Of a stretch of 64,000 nt of DNA, positions 1,847 through 57,750 are shown one piece after another. A program made the position numbers and the translations under genes. The notes beneath the pieces were generated by a model, which worked only from the letters and a program-made list of their open reading frames with translations, made no database searches and was not told the DNA's origin. Numbering within the stretch: the stretch's first letter is position 1; every line of letters starts with the position of its first letter. Source of the stretch: an uncultured Clostridia bacterium (GTDB taxonomy: Bacteria; Bacillota; Clostridia; UMGS1810); the NCBI GenBank assembly GCA_934463115.1, contig CAKSIN010000010.1, positions 3,239-67,238 of the forward strand, read 5' to 3'.

Positions 1847-3985
1847 ATGAAGAATACAAAAGGTTCATTTACGCTGCCCGGTGAAAGCGGCTACGAAGAT
1901 CTCACACTTAAGCTTGCGGAGAAGTGGGGAGCGGATGTAATCCGCGACAGTGACGGTACGGAGCTGTCGCCGGAGATAGTTGATGCCGGATACGGAATAT
2001 ATTCCACAATATGTATTATCCGAAACCACAACGATTGGGCAAAAAAGAATCCCGACAAGCTCCAGCAGACATTTCTTATTTCAGAGCCGGTGGTAGCTGA
2101 GAATACAACCGTAACGGTAAACCTTATGGACGGATATTTCAGCGAGCAGTTTTCGCTGAATGATTCCGACGAGTCGGTTGCGCTCTGGCAGGTGTTCGAC
2201 AGAACGACAGGCGAAGAAGTATGCGGCTGGGAATACAGCAGCGACGCGGTGGTAATAAACGACGCGATACCGTTTCACAAATATACGGTAAATTTTTTGG
2301 CATATCGCATTTGGGAAGAAATATCAATGTACAATCATGTAACGAACAACTGGAACACCGAGCACATGATGCAGATTGATCCCGTCTATCCCGAAACACA
2401 GGAATACATGATGTCGTGGATGCGCAGCTGGTGTGAGTCGCATCCGAAAACAACCGTTGTACGTTTTACATCCATGTTCTATAATTTTGTGTGGATATGG
2501 AGTTCATATGCCAAAAAACGCGAAGTTTTTTCGGATTGGGGTTCCTACGATTTTACCGTAAGCCCGAAAATGCTTGATGATTTCGGCAAAAAATATGGAT
2601 ATAACCTGACATCGGAGGACTTTATAAACGGCGGAAACAGGCATGCAACGCATTGCGCGTGCCCGAAGCGCATTCTTGATTACATGGAGTTTGTAAACAG
2701 TTTTGTAATTGAGTTTGGAAAAAAGCTGGTTGATATCGTTCATTCCTACGGGAAAAAAGCATATGTGTTTTACGATGACAGCTGGGTTGGTGTGGAACCG
2801 TGGGGAAAGAGATTCGGCGAATTCGGATTTGACGGACTCATCAAATGTGTGTACAATGCATTTGAAGCAAGACTGTGCGCCGGTGTGAAAGATGTGGATA
2901 CACACGAGATACGTCTGCATCCGTATCTGTTCCCGGTTGGTCTCGGCGGCGCTCCCACATTTGCACCCGGCGGCAATCCCACGGCAGATGCCAAATCATA
3001 TTGGAAAGACGTTCGCCGTGCACTTCTGCGCGACAGGATAGACAGAATCGGTCTTGGAGGATATTTGTCGCTCACATTGCCGTTCCCGGATTTTAACGAC
3101 TATATCGAAAAAATTGCGGACGAATTCCGCGCGATAAAGGATTTGCATATATCGGGCAAACCGTATGTAAAAAAACCACGCGTTGCCGTTTTGACATTTT
3201 GGGGAAAGCTGCGTTCGTGGATATGCTCCGGTCACTATAACGACAACCCGGCAGTTTGCCTTATTGATATAATCGAAGCGCTTGCCGGAATGCCTCTGGA
3301 TATTGAGTTTATCAGCTTTGATGATTTGCTCGGCGGCGCGCTTGATAATTTTGACGTTGTGATAAATGCCGGAGCGGCAGGTACCGCATGGTCGGGCGCA
3401 AAGGAATGGGAAAATCCCGATGTAACCACTGCCATAACCGAATGGGTATACGGCGGCGGAGTGTTCCTTGGTGTCAACGAACCGTCGGCAGTATGTGCGG
3501 GTTCCGAATTCAGAATGTCACATGTGCTGGGGGTTGATTACTGCGGTGTCGACAAGCTGTGTCACGGGAAGTTCGGATTTGACGTATCCGAATCCGATTC
3601 GGTGCTCGATTCAACGACTCTTTCGGGCAAGGATGATATTTATATTATATCAGACAAAACAAAGGTACTTCTTGCCGACGGCGAGAAACCCGTTATCACG
3701 CGCAATGATTTCGGAAAAGGTGTAGGACTGTATATGTCGTCGTTTAAGCATGGCGATATTAACAACCGCACACTTCTCAATCTTATTTTGGAGAGCTGCG
3801 GCGATACTTCAGCGGAATATCTCACGGACAATCCGCACACAGAGTGCGGATATTATCCGAATGGCGGATTCCTTGTGGTAATAAACAACAGTGCCGACAG
3901 TCAGACAACAACCGTCAAAACACAATACGGTGACAAAACGGTTACGCTTGACGGCTATGACGCAAAAATAATGAATATTAAGTAA
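1847..3985 (+). CDS. 1,3-beta-galactosyl-N-acetylhexosamine phosphorylase (GH112, lacto-N-biose/galacto-N-biose phosphorylase)
   Basis: 712 aa with a GGAGG RBS. Full-length similarity to remembered GH112 enzymes (FTLPGESGYEDL...WGADVIRDSDGT, YTVNFLAYRIWEEISMYNH, VVRFTSMFYNF, GGYLSL, ISFDDLL, VVINNS...TTTV). Confidence 0.9.
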   Translation: MKNTKGSFTLPGESGYEDLTLKLAEKWGADVIRDSDGTELSPEIVDAGYGIYSTICIIRNHNDWAKKNPDKLQQTFLISEPVVAENTTVTVNLMDGYFSEQFSLNDSDESVALWQVFDRTTGEEVCGWEYSSDAVVINDAIPFHKYTVNFLAYRIWEEISMYNHVTNNWNTEHMMQIDPVYPETQEYMMSWMRSWCESHPKTTVVRFTSMFYNFVWIWSSYAKKREVFSDWGSYDFTVSPKMLDDFGKKYGYNLTSEDFINGGNRHATHCACPKRILDYMEFVNSFVIEFGKKLVDIVHSYGKKAYVFYDDSWVGVEPWGKRFGEFGFDGLIKCVYNAFEARLCAGVKDVDTHEIRLHPYLFPVGLGGAPTFAPGGNPTADAKSYWKDVRRALLRDRIDRIGLGGYLSLTLPFPDFNDYIEKIADEFRAIKDLHISGKPYVKKPRVAVLTFWGKLRSWICSGHYNDNPAVCLIDIIEALAGMPLDIEFISFDDLLGGALDNFDVVINAGAAGTAWSGAKEWENPDVTTAITEWVYGGGVFLGVNEPSAVCAGSEFRMSHVLGVDYCGVDKLCHGKFGFDVSESDSVLDSTTLSGKDDIYIISDKTKVLLADGEKPVITRNDFGKGVGLYMSSFKHGDINNRTLLNLILESCGDTSAEYLTDNPHTECGYYPNGGFLVVINNSADSQTTTVKTQYGDKTVTLDGYDAKIMNIK

Positions 3986-4919: not shown

Positions 4920-5828
4920 ATGAGCATTCCCGAAGAGCAGATTCGAGCGTATATACCGTCTGCCGTGCTCTGCCGTATGGGCGGCGGCATTTTTGAGAAA
5001 GGTGTAACCGAGCTGAGATTTTCGGTCGGAAAACGCCCCATGGCAGTCACGCGCAGTGGACTCGAATATATACTCGGCGGTGAACATGCCGGGTATGTTG
5101 TGCGGCACGGGGATATTGTCGAGGTGGCGGACAGCGTGTCACATGGTAGCATGTACTCTGTAAACGGCAGTATTGTAAACGGATTTGTCACCGTTCCCGG
5201 CGGCCACAGAATCGGCTTTTGCGGAACGGCGGTGTATGACGCGGACAAAATTGCGCATATCAAGGATATATCGGATATATGTATTCGTGTTGCACGTCAG
5301 GTCATCGGCTGTGCCGACGGTATTGCCGGTGAACTGTACAGCGGCAATGTGCCGTCAAACATTCTTATTGCTTCTCCGCCGGGATGTGGTAAAACAACGG
5401 TGCTGCGCGATATATGCAGAATCCTCGGAAACGGTTCACCGCGGCACAGACCGCTCAAGGTAGGAATTGCCGATGAACGCAGCGAGATAGCTGCCGTGTA
5501 CAACGGCGAGAGTCAAAACGATGTCGGCGAAGCGTCATTTGTGTGTACCGGGTACAATAAACTGCACGCAATAAATATCATGCTCCGTGCAATGTCACCG
5601 GATGTAATCGCAACCGATGAAATAGGGAGCAGTGATGATTTTGACGCAGTGCAGACCGCGCAAAGGAGCGGTGTGTCAGTTGTGGCAACGGCTCATGCAC
5701 GCTCGCCGGATAATCTGTTTGAAAAATTCGGCAAAGAAAAACTGCACGCGTGTTTTGACAGAATAATATTTTTGTCAAAAATGTCTGTTGCGGACAGAAT
5801 ATACAGGAGGGAAAACAATGATTATTAA
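4920..5828 (+). CDS. spoIIIAA: Stage III sporulation protein AA (AAA+ ATPase)
   Basis: Walker A motif SPPGCGKTT, GAGGTGG RBS, first gene of an eight-gene spoIIIA-ordered operon. Confidence 0.9.
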   Translation: MSIPEEQIRAYIPSAVLCRMGGGIFEKGVTELRFSVGKRPMAVTRSGLEYILGGEHAGYVVRHGDIVEVADSVSHGSMYSVNGSIVNGFVTVPGGHRIGFCGTAVYDADKIAHIKDISDICIRVARQVIGCADGIAGELYSGNVPSNILIASPPGCGKTTVLRDICRILGNGSPRHRPLKVGIADERSEIAAVYNGESQNDVGEASFVCTGYNKLHAINIMLRAMSPDVIATDEIGSSDDFDAVQTAQRSGVSVVATAHARSPDNLFEKFGKEKLHACFDRIIFLSKMSVADRIYRRENNDY

Positions 5829-6333
5829 AATTATCGGAATTGCTTTGGTGATGATATCGGCAACGCTTATAGGTTTTTGCTTTTCGGAGTGTATGGTCTG
5901 CCGCGAGCGCGAGGTAGACAATCTCGGTGACGCGGTGGCAATTATGGAGGATTGCCTTGAATGCACAATGGAGCCGGTAGGCCGCCTTTTCGGAAAAGCA
6001 TTGCCCCATGTCAAAGGCGGAGTACACGACATGTTTGCTCTTACGGACAAATATGTCGCGGACGGGATGAGCGCGTCAAAGGCATGGTGTGCGGCATTGG
6101 ACGAGAGCGCATGTGCGCTGTGTCTCAGACGTTCGGACTGCGAATATCTGAAAGCGTGCGCCGATTCTTTTTGTGCAAACGATATCGGGCAGCAGAAGAT
6201 GCAGCTGAAGTCTCTGCGCAGCAAAATATCAATGCTCGGTGACGATATAAAGAACTACAACAATAAAAACTGTCGGCTGTATAAGGCACTCGGTGTATAC
6301 GGCGGAGTGTTTTTGTGTGCCGTACTCTTTTGA
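5818..6333 (+). CDS. spoIIIAB: Stage III sporulation protein AB
   Basis: Start chosen at ATG 5818 behind AGGAGGG. N-terminal TM segment. Position and size fit SpoIIIAB. Confidence 0.8.
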   Translation: MIIKIIGIALVMISATLIGFCFSECMVCREREVDNLGDAVAIMEDCLECTMEPVGRLFGKALPHVKGGVHDMFALTDKYVADGMSASKAWCAALDESACALCLRRSDCEYLKACADSFCANDIGQQKMQLKSLRSKISMLGDDIKNYNNKNCRLYKALGVYGGVFLCAVLF

Positions 6334-6344
6334 GGAGGCTCCGG

Positions 6345-6542
6345 ATGATTGGAACAGAGCTTATTTTTCAGATAGCCGCCATAGGAATTATTGTTTCGGT
6401 GCTGTGCCGCCTGCTTGTTCAGTCCGGGCGCGACGAGCAGGCATTCATGGTTTCTCTTGCCGGGCTTATATCCGTAATGCTTATTGTCGTCAGGCAGGTC
6501 AGCACATTGTTTGATACTGTCAGGGAGCTGTTCGGACTATGA
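6345..6542 (+). CDS. spoIIIAC: Stage III sporulation protein AC
   Basis: 65-aa two-TM protein (MIGTELIFQIAAIGIIVSVL...) with a GAGGAGG RBS. Confidence 0.85.
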   Translation: MIGTELIFQIAAIGIIVSVLCRLLVQSGRDEQAFMVSLAGLISVMLIVVRQVSTLFDTVRELFGL

Positions 6543-21226: not shown

Positions 21227-22087
21227 TTGGAGTGCGGAACACTTTACCTTGTTGCAACGCCTATAGGTAATCTTAACGATATGACATATCGTGCGGTTGA
21301 CACACTGAAAAATGTTGATTTTATTGCCTGTGAGGACACAAGACATTCTCTGCGGCTGCTGAACCATTTTGACATACACAAGCCGCTCACAAGCTATTTT
21401 GAACATAATAAACGCGAAAAGGGCGAGTATATTATATCAAGGCTCAAATCCGGTGAAAGCGCGGCGCTTGTTACCGATGCCGGCACTCCGGCAATATCCG
21501 ATCCGGGTGAAGACCTTGTGCGGATGTGCATTGAACAAAATGTCAAAGTCGTTCCTGTGCCGGGATGTGCGGCACTTATTAATGCGCTCATTGTTTCCGG
21601 ACAGGATACGGGCAGGTTTTGTTTTGAGGGATTTTTGTCGGTGAACAAAAAGAGCCGTTCGGAGCACCTTGCGTTTCTCGCCGGCGAACGGCGGACTATG
21701 ATTTTTTACGAGGCTCCGCACAAACTGCGCCGTACTTTGGATGATATGATCCGTACATTCGGCGGCGACCGCCCGGTAACGCTTGTGCGTGAACTCACTA
21801 AGCTGCACGAACAGATTATGTGCACAACTCTAAGCAAAGCCGCGCAGGTATATGACGGGGTTTCTCCGAAAGGTGAATATGTAATAGTGCTTGCCGGAAT
21901 GAGCGAGGAACAGGCGGCGAATAAGAGAAAAGAGGAATACTCGGATATAAGCATTATACAGCATGTTGACCGCTATATATCCGGGGGCATGACAAAAAAG
22001 GATGCTATCCGCGAGACTGCAAAAAGGCGCGGGCTTTCGCGCCGCGATGTGTACAACGAATATGAAAACGGAAGCAAAGGAGTGTGA
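21227..22087 (+). CDS. rsmI: 16S rRNA (cytidine1402-2'-O)-methyltransferase
   Basis: TTG 21227 lies 6 nt after GGAGGTG. Contains GTLYLVATPIGNL and DAGTPAISDPG motifs. Confidence 0.9.
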   Translation: MECGTLYLVATPIGNLNDMTYRAVDTLKNVDFIACEDTRHSLRLLNHFDIHKPLTSYFEHNKREKGEYIISRLKSGESAALVTDAGTPAISDPGEDLVRMCIEQNVKVVPVPGCAALINALIVSGQDTGRFCFEGFLSVNKKSRSEHLAFLAGERRTMIFYEAPHKLRRTLDDMIRTFGGDRPVTLVRELTKLHEQIMCTTLSKAAQVYDGVSPKGEYVIVLAGMSEEQAANKRKEEYSDISIIQHVDRYISGGMTKKDAIRETAKRRGLSRRDVYNEYENGSKGV

Positions 22088-22091
22088 CACC

Positions 22092-22964
22092 GTGAACAAG
22101 CAGGGATATGTGTACAAATCAATGGAAAAATACAGGCGAAAATTTGCTCTGATATGCGGAGTAATATTTGTACTTTGGGTGTTGTTTACGGTTGCAAAAT
22201 GGCCGTATATACGCACGAAAATGTTTGGTGCAGTTGCACTTGACGAATCGGAGTATTTGTCTGAAACGGGAACAAAAACGCTGACCGAACCGCTTGTGCT
22301 GGATCGTCATGAGACAAAAGAACCGACGTCGATATATTCCAAACAGAACAGCTATTGGCAGGACGGCAGGTATCTCTTTAATATGAACATAAGCAATATT
22401 AAAGAAACTGATGTTGAGTTTACCTCAATTCTTGAGGTTTCGTCATCTCAAAAGCTGGAGTACCCCACTGCCGTAATCTATACTGCCGATCTTGCCGGGA
22501 AAACCACTGTAATAATAGCTGAGCCGGAGCAAAAATTATCCGACAATATTCAAGGTTACCTTGTGGAACCGCAAAGAGCGGTTTTGTCCCGTCTGTCGGA
22601 AAATATGAAAGACGGCGACAAGCTTGTCCTGGCAGATTGGTTTATTGACTGCCGTAAGATTGATATGGGGCTTGATTCCACGGATTTGCATATTTCGTTT
22701 TTGATGCTGATGGTTCTGATTCTTTTGCTTATTCGTCTGGCACAGGAATATATCAATCCGCTCAGCACACCGACGTACCGGCAGCTTTCACGCTACGGCA
22801 ACATAACCGATATAGCCGCCGAAGTCGACAGAGAGGTAGAATCCGCAGACGCATACACAGAGGACGGAAAGTTTATATGCGAAAACTTTATCATTGAAAA
22901 TGATACTTTCAAAAAGAAAATTACGCGTAATCATATGGTAAGTGATGAAAAACGACATTCATAG
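22092..22964 (+). CDS. Hypothetical membrane protein (two predicted TM segments)
   Basis: GTG 22092 follows AAAGGAG. Hydrophobic segments are FALICGVIFVLWVLFTVA and ISFLMLMVLILLLIRLA. No recognisable family. Its TAG stop is completed by the first base of the adjacent repeat element. Confidence 0.5.
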   Translation: MNKQGYVYKSMEKYRRKFALICGVIFVLWVLFTVAKWPYIRTKMFGAVALDESEYLSETGTKTLTEPLVLDRHETKEPTSIYSKQNSYWQDGRYLFNMNISNIKETDVEFTSILEVSSSQKLEYPTAVIYTADLAGKTTVIIAEPEQKLSDNIQGYLVEPQRAVLSRLSENMKDGDKLVLADWFIDCRKIDMGLDSTDLHISFLMLMVLILLLIRLAQEYINPLSTPTYRQLSRYGNITDIAAEVDREVESADAYTEDGKFICENFIIENDTFKKKITRNHMVSDEKRHS

Positions 22965-23235
22965 CCGAAGGAGAGTAACCCGAACCCGCCTGAAAAGGCA
23001 TAATTTCGGCATCTTTTGGCTTGTCATCTTCGCAAGGCGACAGCCTTGCTTCATCTTCCGCACCAAAATCTGTTCAAAATTCTATCCTTTTCAGGTCAAA
23101 GAATTTTGAGAGAACGGATTTTTGGTTGCGCAAGGCAAAAACGCAGGTAATCCTTTGTGGATTACCGAGTATTTTAACACAGCGAAAGCGGAAATCCGTC
23201 TCTCAAAATCGGAGTTCGGATTATTCTCTTTTGGC
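22964..23235. repeat. Structured repeat element, copy 1 (272 bp, TA flanks, 24-bp terminal inverted repeats)
   Basis: The termini 22962-22985 and 23214-23237 pair over 24 positions (20 Watson-Crick, 3 G:T, 1 mismatch). Internal helices are 22989-22998/23086-23095, 23014-23019/23063-23068, hairpin 23032-23049, 23103-23121/23192-23209 and hairpin 23146-23166. Homologous in reverse orientation to 57472-57746. Confidence 0.75.
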
Positions 23236-23237
23236 TA

Positions 23238-23260
23238 GGCATGTGGGAGTCGAACCCGAT
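23238..23260. repeat. Solo terminus of a further copy of the same element
   Basis: GGCATGTGGGAGTCGAACCCGAT matches the reverse complement of the copy-2 right terminus (GGCATGCAGGAGTCGAACCC) at 19/20 positions. It starts directly after the TA that flanks copy 1. Confidence 0.6.
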
Positions 23261-23307
23261 ACAGCGGTAAAGAAACGGTAAAAAAATAAAAATTTTGAAA
23301 AAAACGC

Positions 23308-47859: not shown

Positions 47860-47936
47860 GCGCCTATAGCTCAGCAGGATAGAGCGAACGCCTCCTAAGC
47901 GTTAGGCCGGTGGTTCGAATCCACTTAGGCGCGCCA
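47860..47936 (+). tRNA. tRNA-Arg (anticodon CCU)
   Basis: Cloverleaf with acceptor GCGCCTA/TAGGCGC, anticodon loop CTCCTAA, T-loop TTCGAAT and an encoded CCA. Confidence 0.9.
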
Positions 47937-47945
47937 TCACTTTTT

Positions 47946-48021
47946 CGGGGTGTAGCGCAGTTGGTAGCGCACCAGACTGGGGGTCTGGGGGCCGTGGGTT
48001 CAAGTCCCGTCACTCCGACCA
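47946..48021 (+). tRNA. tRNA-Pro (anticodon GGG)
   Basis: Acceptor CGGGGTG/CACTCCG, anticodon stem CCAGA/TCTGG with loop CTGGGGG, T-loop TTCAAGT and an encoded CCA. Confidence 0.9.
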
Positions 48022-57398: not shown

Positions 57399-57433
57399 GA
57401 TTGTCTTAAATAAATATGTCAATCAATAAATGA

Positions 57434-57470
57434 CGGCGGCAAAATAAATCATATTTTGCCGCCGCTGTTT
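57434..57470 (+). terminator. Terminator-like hairpin after the maturase gene
   Basis: 12-bp stem CGGCGGCAAAAT/ATTTTGCCGCCG with a 7-nt loop, followed by CTGTTT. Confidence 0.6.
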
Positions 57471-57471
57471 A

Positions 57472-57746
57472 GGCATGCGGGATTCGAATCCGGATGTGGT
57501 TTAAAAATGGAAATTTCGCATAATACTGCAGAAAAATCTGCGAATATACGGACTGTATTATTCTTAAATTTTCTTTGTCTTATTTCAAAATTTCCTATTT
57601 TTAAACTCTGCGACCTTACGTTTAGAAAAATTTATTGGATTTTCAATGCGGAGGACGCAGACAGGCTGTCGCCTTTCAAGGACGACAAATTGAAAAGACT
57701 TCAATTTTTCAAACGTAAGGCATATTGGGTTCGACTCCTGCATGCC
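57472..57746. repeat. Structured repeat element, copy 2 (275 bp, TA flanks, 22-bp terminal inverted repeats), inverted relative to copy 1
   Basis: The termini TAGGCATGCGGGATTCGAATCC (57470-57491) and GGGTTCGACTCCTGCATGCCTA (57727-57748) pair at 19/22 positions. Internal helices are 57614-57623/57711-57720, 57640-57647/57689-57696, hairpin 57660-57677 and 57499-57517/57588-57606. Confidence 0.75.
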
Positions 57747-57750
57747 TACG

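Follow-up and report, generated by a model that had tools for sequence, protein, structure and literature searches.

Whether the two highly structured intergenic elements on contig CAKSIN010000010.1, from an uncultured Clostridia bacterium, are genes for non-coding RNAs or copies of a mobile element is the question raised by this locus. The 64,000 nt of the contig that were analyzed are referred to below as the window, and window coordinates are used for both elements (copy 1 and copy 2). The initial annotation, made from the sequence alone, had left two readings side by side, a non-autonomous MITE (miniature inverted-repeat transposable element) of a TA-targeting transposon and a family of structured non-coding RNAs. 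Comparison with related genomes indicates that the first of these is very probably correct, and that both copies belong to a recently mobile, non-coding MITE family that inserts at TA and would be mobilised in trans by a DDE transposase of the IS630/Tc1-mariner type. The MITE identity follows from the multiple copies, the inverted termini of approximately 25 bp, the TA duplication, the target preference, the presence/absence polymorphism with its empty sites, the insertions into coding genes and the existence of deletion derivatives; the assignment of the enzyme to the IS630/Tc1-mariner type is drawn only from the duplicated TA and the repeated termini.

The family is previously undescribed and consists of two subfamilies distributed in uncultured Clostridia of the rabbit, human and possibly sheep gut. 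When 185,579 species-representative genomes were screened for the terminal motif TAGGCATGNNGGANTCGAANCC, the exact terminal-repeat pattern was found in 56 stretches. The rabbit-gut metagenome-assembled genomes (MAGs) of 'uncultured Ruminiclostridium' Lapin-019__bin30 and Lapin-030__bin83 harbor 21 and 17 stretches, respectively, with a few more in bin45 and bin51; further hosts are the human-gut 'uncultured Clostridia' MAGs CAKSSN and CAKSGG, and one decayed copy was found in a sheep Oscillospiraceae MAG. When termini were paired with mismatches allowed, at least 27 complete elements of 274-281 bp were obtained, each bounded by inverted termini of ~25 bp. This size is below the limit of ~500 bp for MITEs, and the only open reading frames (ORFs) recurring across copies are read-throughs of the repeat. 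Sequence identity within one MAG ranges from 81 to 99.6%, and values of 45-66% were obtained among four lineages, three of them type I (rabbit, CAKSSN and window copy 2) and one type II (window copy 1). Type I termini (TAGGCATGnGGGAnTCGAACCC, with terminal inverted repeats of ~25 bp, TAGGCATGCGGGAaTCGAACCCgAG) are carried by window copy 2, by a solo remnant in the window, by the rabbit copies and by the CAKSSN loci L026, L029 and L056. Type II termini (TAGCCGAAGGAGAGTAACCCGAAC) are carried by window copy 1, whose closest relative is the type II copy L045 709-983 (82% identical once reverse-complemented, the differences being paired in stems). Contig ends coincide with many family copies, and both copies of the window are places at or within which metagenome contigs of this organism break off; since a dispersed repeat is present at these loci, short-read assemblies of these gut Clostridia break there.

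Outside these hosts the searches returned no member of the family. The terminal-repeat pattern had 0 matches in viral contigs, BLAST of the copies against plasmids gave no match, and the 11 matches of the pattern in JGI/ENA metagenome contigs included no family member, being tRNA-Sec genes or chance occurrences in GC-rich coding sequence. Likewise, three of the genome matches are genuine tRNA-Sec genes rather than family members, and those in Bacteroidota and at two Lachnospiraceae loci apparently arose by chance in unrelated sequence. BLAST against phages yielded only a match of 25 nt, to the copy 1 apical hairpin (CGCAAGGCGACAGCCTTGCTTCAT); it lies in two 'Bacteriophage sp.' contigs of human faecal origin, both unverified (L060 1497-1549, MT836023.1, and L061 1497-1548, MT836997.1), inside a repeated block of ~120 nt and with no full element there. 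Within the window, the nhmmer family profile detected nothing beyond the two copies and the solo remnant.

Mobility of the family was evident from its insertion sites. TA is present at both ends in 24 of 28 paired elements, the remaining four being off by one base at one end, and no direct repeat longer than TA flanks the element in any of the 28. Copy 1 adjoins a gene whose protein is 98% identical to its homologue P0001, encoded on contig L073 of the same species; there, the spacer between this gene and atpB measures 190 bp vs 470 bp in the window. Alignment A5 opposes the empty site of L073 (...GACATTCA-TA-GGCAT..., with CATTCA directly before the TA) to the filled site of the window (...GACATTCA-TA-[274 nt]-TA-GGCAT...), with 2 substitutions in the flanks outside the solo-repeat remnant. 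The single TA of the conspecific L073 therefore indicates that copy 1 was gained or lost within the species and that TA was duplicated. Such presence/absence polymorphism is part of the outcome that the initial annotation had named as deciding for a mobile element. Two further empty sites were found in sister species: the site of the L057 copy (bin45) is uninterrupted in L032 (bin83), within an intact 342-aa DAHP-synthase ORF, and that of the L025 copy (bin51) is uninterrupted in L005 (bin45), within a 442-aa STAS-domain ORF. Both L032 and L005 have exactly 2 nt in place of TA-element-TA. As for copy 2, metagenome contig L076 carries it at the same position, and contigs L002, L003 and L077 stop at its edge or within it; no empty site for it was found among the contigs compared, and L078, a 79%-identical relative, has a different synteny. 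Filled orthologous sites were likewise observed between two rabbit-gut species, at L006 40-318 / L016 2333-2611 and at L007 1625-1903 / L022 6686-6966.

Among the 71 unique flanks pooled, 41 have G at position -3 and 51 have either G or C at -2, which corresponds to a weak palindromic target preference, GSN-TA-NSC. The end of the element together with TA (GCC-TA) itself fits this target. At two unrelated loci, L045 709-1038 and window 22962-23262, a type II copy lies directly against a shortened type I element (57 and 27 nt, respectively), with the TA in common; the two type II copies use opposite type II ends, and the arrangements are independent. Such a position of type II beside a type I repeat may result from the GCC-TA target that a type I end creates. 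The solo remnant of the window also differs between strains, reading TAGGCATGTGGGAGTCGAACCCGATAC in the window vs TAGGCATACCTAACCCGATAC in L073 (about 3872-3895).

Most copies are intergenic and near gene ends, and some are within coding sequence. The element's terminal TAG is used as stop codon by the neighbouring gene in 4 of 28 copies (window 22962-22964, L028 2255-2257, L044 3558-3560 and L041 1563-1565). The window ORF 22002-22964, which stops on the TAG of copy 1, encodes a product that aligns with its homologues up to ...NHMVSDEKRHS (alignment A4); more distant homologues end 5 residues sooner, and, judging from these alignments, the C-terminus of the product may have been reshaped by an older type I insertion. 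A 27-nt solo type I repeat at L005 5875-5901 is read in frame, as ...SDRHAGVEPKRLD..., within a 302-aa patatin-like ORF of the minus strand (5550-6458), and looks like a remnant tolerated in coding sequence. The apparent start of an autonomous partner in L005 proved to be this same solo repeat within the patatin-like gene.

The coordinates of the two complete window elements and of their parts are summarized in Table 1.

Table 1. The two complete elements of the window, their parts and the adjoining solo repeat.
Feature	Position	Strand	Remarks
Copy 1, complete type II MITE	22962..23237	+ (by the convention of alignment A2)	276 bp with both terminal TAs
Copy 1, left terminal inverted repeat	22962..22985	+	TAGCCGAAGGAGAGTAACCCGAAC
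Copy 1, hairpin domain A	22989..23095	+	closing helix 22989-22998 / 23086-23095, in the minimum free energy fold
Copy 1, hairpin domain B	23103..23209	+	closing helix 23103-23121 / 23192-23209, in the minimum free energy fold
Copy 1, right terminal inverted repeat	23214..23237	+	GTTCGGATTATTCTCTTTTGGCTA; pairs with the left repeat at 23/24 positions
Solo type I terminal repeat remnant	23236..23262	+	TAGGCATGTGGGAGTCGAACCCGATAC; TA in common with the right end of copy 1
Copy 2, complete type I MITE	57470..57748	-	279 bp with terminal TAs
Copy 2, terminal inverted repeat	57470..57494	+	TAGGCATGCGGGATTCGAATCCGGA; T-arm-like hairpin inside
Copy 2, second terminal inverted repeat	57724..57748	-	TAGGCATGCAGGAGTCGAACCCAAT (minus-strand reading)

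Most of the structural description given in the initial annotation withstood re-examination. The quoted sequences of both copies are present where they had been placed, TA stands on both sides of each copy, and the helices assigned to domains A and B of copy 1 both belong to the minimum free energy fold. Counted by hand, the 24 positions of the terminal helix of copy 1 again include a single mismatch, besides 3 G:T and 20 Watson-Crick pairs. The second copy is homologous to the first and lies in the opposite orientation (alignment A1), the common architecture being a terminal helix that closes two long hairpin domains. The element is indeed present at 57472-57746, as had been proposed for copy 2, but the terminal TAs had been left out of this span. 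A likeness of the termini to a tRNA T-arm is retained by copy 2 (GGGTTCGACTCC) and does not hold for copy 1, in which the motif has decayed. The solo terminal repeat adjoining copy 1 and the fact that copies 1 and 2 come from different subfamilies had gone unremarked. The target-site duplication of copy 1 is the TA at 22962-22963 and 23236-23237, so that the net insertion is 274 bp. Domain A of this copy ends in the apical hairpin GCAAGGC-GACA-GCCTTGC (23032-23049), whose sequence is kept across subfamilies, and domain B comprises a closing helix of 18 bp with one bulged A and an 8-bp apical hairpin at 23146-23166. Folding of the plus strand of copy 1 yielded -117.6 kcal/mol vs -67.5 +/- 4.5 kcal/mol for dinucleotide shuffles (z -11.3), and its minus strand gave a z of -8.7. 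The corresponding values for copy 2 were -10.1 and -10.0, one per strand, and in each of the four copy/strand cases 0 of 200 shuffles matched the real fold. Copy 2 is located between convergent genes, 71 nt past the stop of a radical-SAM gene (57398) and 2 nt away from the stop of an SLH/PBP-like gene (57751) on its other side. Directly before it, downstream of the radical-SAM/SPASM gene, a 14-bp GC-rich hairpin at window 57433-57465 appeared terminator-like on the minus strand by scan; it is probably the terminator of the radical-SAM gene, copy 2 sitting just past it.

The upkeep of this fold across the family was analyzed on alignment A2, composed of 16 sequences from all four lineages, with the structure predicted by RNAalifold. 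The consensus contains 79 pairs, arranged as the terminal helix plus the two hairpin domains. Compensatory double changes that keep the pair occur in at least one sequence in 41 of these pairs, both sides having changed in 14/26 pairs of domain A (helices 2-5) and in 20/33 pairs of domain B (helices 6-8). Under this structure 94.5% of cells are paired vs 84.7 +/- 0.5% after partner shuffling, the observed value being reached in 0/500 shuffles, and sliding of the partners by 1-3 columns gave 30-49%. As an example, six double changes separate the helix CCTGAAAAGG/CCTTTTCAGG of one copy from its counterpart CCTTACGTTT/AAACGTAAGG in the other. The compensatory conservation of the fold, which the initial annotation had noticed by comparing the two copies, is therefore real. 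The further suggestion of that annotation, that such preservation is atypical of MITEs, does not exclude one: compensatory changes comparable to these have been described for bcr1 and stable folds for Nezha and Chunjie (PMC3184786), so that the covariation is no argument against a MITE.

The fold does not distinguish between the strands. The consensus fold energies of the forward and reverse-complement alignments are -87.3 vs -87.4 kcal/mol, and those of single copies do not consistently favour either strand. Orientation with respect to the left-hand gene is random (11 co-oriented and 14 anti-oriented copies), and no promoter or terminator was found to be consistently tied to the copies. In most subfamilies the apical tetraloop, read on one of the strands, has the form GNNA (GACA, GCGA, GCCA and GCAA).

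Derivatives of the element were found as well. The shortest forms, of 42-43 bp, keep the two termini alone (L021 6515-6556 and L038 3318-3360); in both, the left terminus is joined to part of the right terminus and the interior of the terminal helix is gone. Forms of 45 bp (L024 3469-3513 and L054 669-713) end at an internal ATGCCT mimicking the right end, L025 carries a 204-bp form without the interior of domain A, and solo terminal repeats also occur in the family. The miniatures of 42-45 bp are consistent with slippage across hairpin bases, and the deletions of hairpin interiors suggest that hairpins form in vivo. In addition, the apical ~24 nt of domain A (TTGACAGGCGCCAGCCTGCCTGCG) are reverse-complemented in L022 6686-6966 and in L028 2255-2534. 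This inversion is a flip of the hairpin loop at the DNA level, by which the loop sequence would be swapped in an RNA.

Taken as a MITE of the IS630/Tc1-mariner type, the element would be bound at its ~25-bp terminal repeats by a DDE transposase supplied in trans, which would excise it and join its 3' ends to staggered positions at TA. The fold, a terminal helix closing two hairpin domains of ~50 bp, would be a symmetric property, equally good on either strand. It may be kept because a compact or cruciform form would help a short element to bring its ends together and to persist; alternatively, hairpin-templated correction of the arms could maintain it. Neighbouring transcripts would gain long hairpins of double-stranded RNA from the element, whichever way it is transcribed. 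Three possible reasons for the kept fold thus remain: the compact or cruciform form, orientation-independent effects on transcripts and hairpin-templated correction of the arms.

Several points weigh against this interpretation. Strong compensatory conservation is not needed by a Tc1/IS630-type mechanism. The same applies to the orthologous elements of L006 and L016, which are identical at 277/279 positions vs 92.8% identity of their 250-bp flank; this is more than such a mechanism demands and suggests constraint or gene conversion on the repeat. Both cross-species empty sites read TG instead of TA, a clean TA being found only at the conspecific site; on the sense strand of the gene, the TG amounts to C vs T just ahead of AAGGAA, and may represent a synonymous change at a third codon position. 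Finally, no autonomous element was found, in that neither the window nor any of the 78 loci contains a transposase ORF enclosed by matching repeats, although MAGs usually lose insertion sequence (IS) copies, which makes this weak evidence. The IS630-like transposase with matching repeats, for which the initial annotation had proposed a search, was not encountered in the collections scanned: no cognate IS was detected in the 56 genome loci, the 11 metagenome loci or the viral, plasmid and phage collections, short-read contigs being prone to lose IS. Among the family loci, there were no plus/minus pairs of terminal repeats spaced 0.7-3 kb and no multi-copy ORF.

The covariation is also what would be expected if the copies were strand-specific genes for structured non-coding RNAs, with the fold as their product and the dispersed copies as paralogues, and the GNNA tetraloop found on one strand points the same way as the double changes and the excess of paired cells over all 500 shuffles. 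A gene of this kind is, on the other hand, hardly compatible with equal fold energies on both strands, random orientation to the flanking genes, coding genes interrupted by copies, absence of copy 1 from the conspecific strain L073, inversion of the apical hairpin in L022 and L028 and lack of a consistently associated promoter or terminator. Moreover, Rfam 15 searched over the whole window at gathering scores matched tRNA-Arg and tRNA-Pro only, at 47860-48021, and permissive E-value scans of both copies returned sub-threshold noise only, so that neither copy matches a curated family. The non-coding RNA family of the initial annotation, understood as a strand-specific gene, is accordingly given up as very unlikely. 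Even less credence, amounting to almost none, is given to a tRNA-derived or tRNA-like origin, by which the copies would be degenerate tRNA/tmRNA-like genes or integrase attachment sites taken from a tRNA 3' end. The T-arm-like GGG-TTCGAnT-CCC present in each type I terminus would agree with it, as would the outer 22 nt, which are identical at 21/22 positions to the 3' ends of tRNA-Sec in Lachnospiraceae and Eubacteriales MAGs (L011 and L048). Genes for tRNA-Sec ending in GGGTTCGATTCCCACATGCCTA are located at L011 3243-3340, L027 4406-4503 and L048 4065-4162, and also in L062 and L071. This likeness may be due to chance or may hint at the origin of the termini; according to a rough estimate, the few 22-nt matches to tRNA 3' ends among the 185,579 genomes are within chance. 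ARAGORN identified tRNA-Arg and tRNA-Pro only, and no tmRNA, in the window, and neither copy was hit by the Rfam tRNA model, even when E-values of up to 10 were allowed. The two ends carry the motif in inverted orientation, unlike the direct repeats attL/attR, and it is missing from type II termini, yet copy 1, which bears such termini, was recently mobile.

More weight, though still little, can be given to a mobile element that moves via folded single-stranded DNA or RNA and is handled by a structure-recognizing enzyme instead of a DDE transposase. Selection on the fold would then account for the kept architecture, which type I and type II share in spite of their different termini; the stems are almost perfectly Watson-Crick on both strands, and the deletions remove exact hairpin interiors (the terminal-helix interior in L038 and L021, domain A in L025), suggesting that hairpins form on single-stranded DNA in vivo. 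Single-strand transposons (IS200/IS605, IS91) are not known to have either target duplication or terminal inverted repeats, which counts against this route. A precise 2-bp TA duplication combined with inverted repeats of ~25 bp is, by contrast, the hallmark of IS630/Tc1-type DDE elements, which move by cut and paste (PMC2170065), and no candidate for the alternative enzyme was found in the window or in the family loci. A broader reading, which is also unlikely, is that the element is more than a passive MITE and that its architecture, including the T-arm-like hairpin of each type I terminus, is under selection, the element acting or moving via a folded single strand of DNA or RNA. It might, for instance, undergo a structure-dependent step of transposition, or serve as an orientation-independent module for transcript processing or insulation. 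This possibility arises because the compensatory upkeep extends across different termini and because the orthologous pair is far more conserved than its coding flanks. Two other candidates were rejected: integron attC sites, given copies 34 kb apart in opposite orientation, surrounded by housekeeping genes and with no cassette array, and REP/BIME elements, whose size and architecture are wrong.

With the MITE reading, two intergenic candidates for 'structured RNA' are spared mis-annotation. The element marks strain differences and may provide a gene with its stop codon; in sister species it interrupts the genes for a DAHP synthase and a STAS-domain protein. The family also offers a test case for selection on folded DNA or RNA vs hairpin-templated correction in bacterial MITEs.

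In comparison with described systems, the family is new but its kind is known, the nearest counterparts being RUP, Correia, Nezha and bcr1. Correia elements of Neisseria duplicate TA and have terminal repeats of ~26 bp, and the hairpin formed by these repeats in transcripts is processed by RNase III. They differ from the present family in their length of 104-157 bp, their IHF site and their promoter elements. The Firmicutes precedent is RUP of S. pneumoniae, a MITE that targets TA and has been attributed to IS630-Spn1 (PMC2170065, PMC2229807). It resembles the present family in being a small, non-coding, multi-copy element of a Firmicutes host, with terminal inverted repeats, TA insertion, mostly intergenic locations and presumed mobilisation in trans (PMC2229807). 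Compared by description, RUP measures 107 bp and its repeats match those of a known IS, whereas the present elements are of ~276-279 bp, have no parent IS found and contain two long internal hairpin domains with compensatory upkeep. Within the IS630 family, ISY100 has terminal repeats of 24 bp, integrates only at TA with a 2-bp TA duplication and requires its terminal repeats only (PMC2170065). The terminal repeats of ~24-25 bp and the TA insertion with 2-bp duplication are thus shared with IS630/Tc1-mariner elements; these, however, encode their own DDE transposase, while nothing is encoded here and no matching transposase was found, and ISY100 has no counterpart to the conserved internal fold. 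The MITEs Nezha of cyanobacteria and Chunjie of Geobacter share with the family their terminal inverted repeats and very stable predicted folds; the mobility of Nezha was inferred from filled vs empty orthologous sites, and several Chunjie copies overlap protein genes (PMC3184786). Both differ in hosts and sequences, Chunjie producing 9-bp duplications and Nezha having the repeats of ISNpu3, in contrast to the family described here, for which no parent IS was found. Finally, bcr1 of the Bacillus cereus group is a dispersed Firmicutes repeat of strain-variable distribution in which compensatory changes keep a cruciform-like structure (PMC3184786), although it is a transcribed element of ~155 bp flanked by 5-bp direct repeats, compared with 276-279 bp and a 2-bp TA duplication in the present case. 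Set against these systems, the main interest of the family lies in the unusually faithful upkeep of its hairpin architecture in an otherwise ordinary kind of element.

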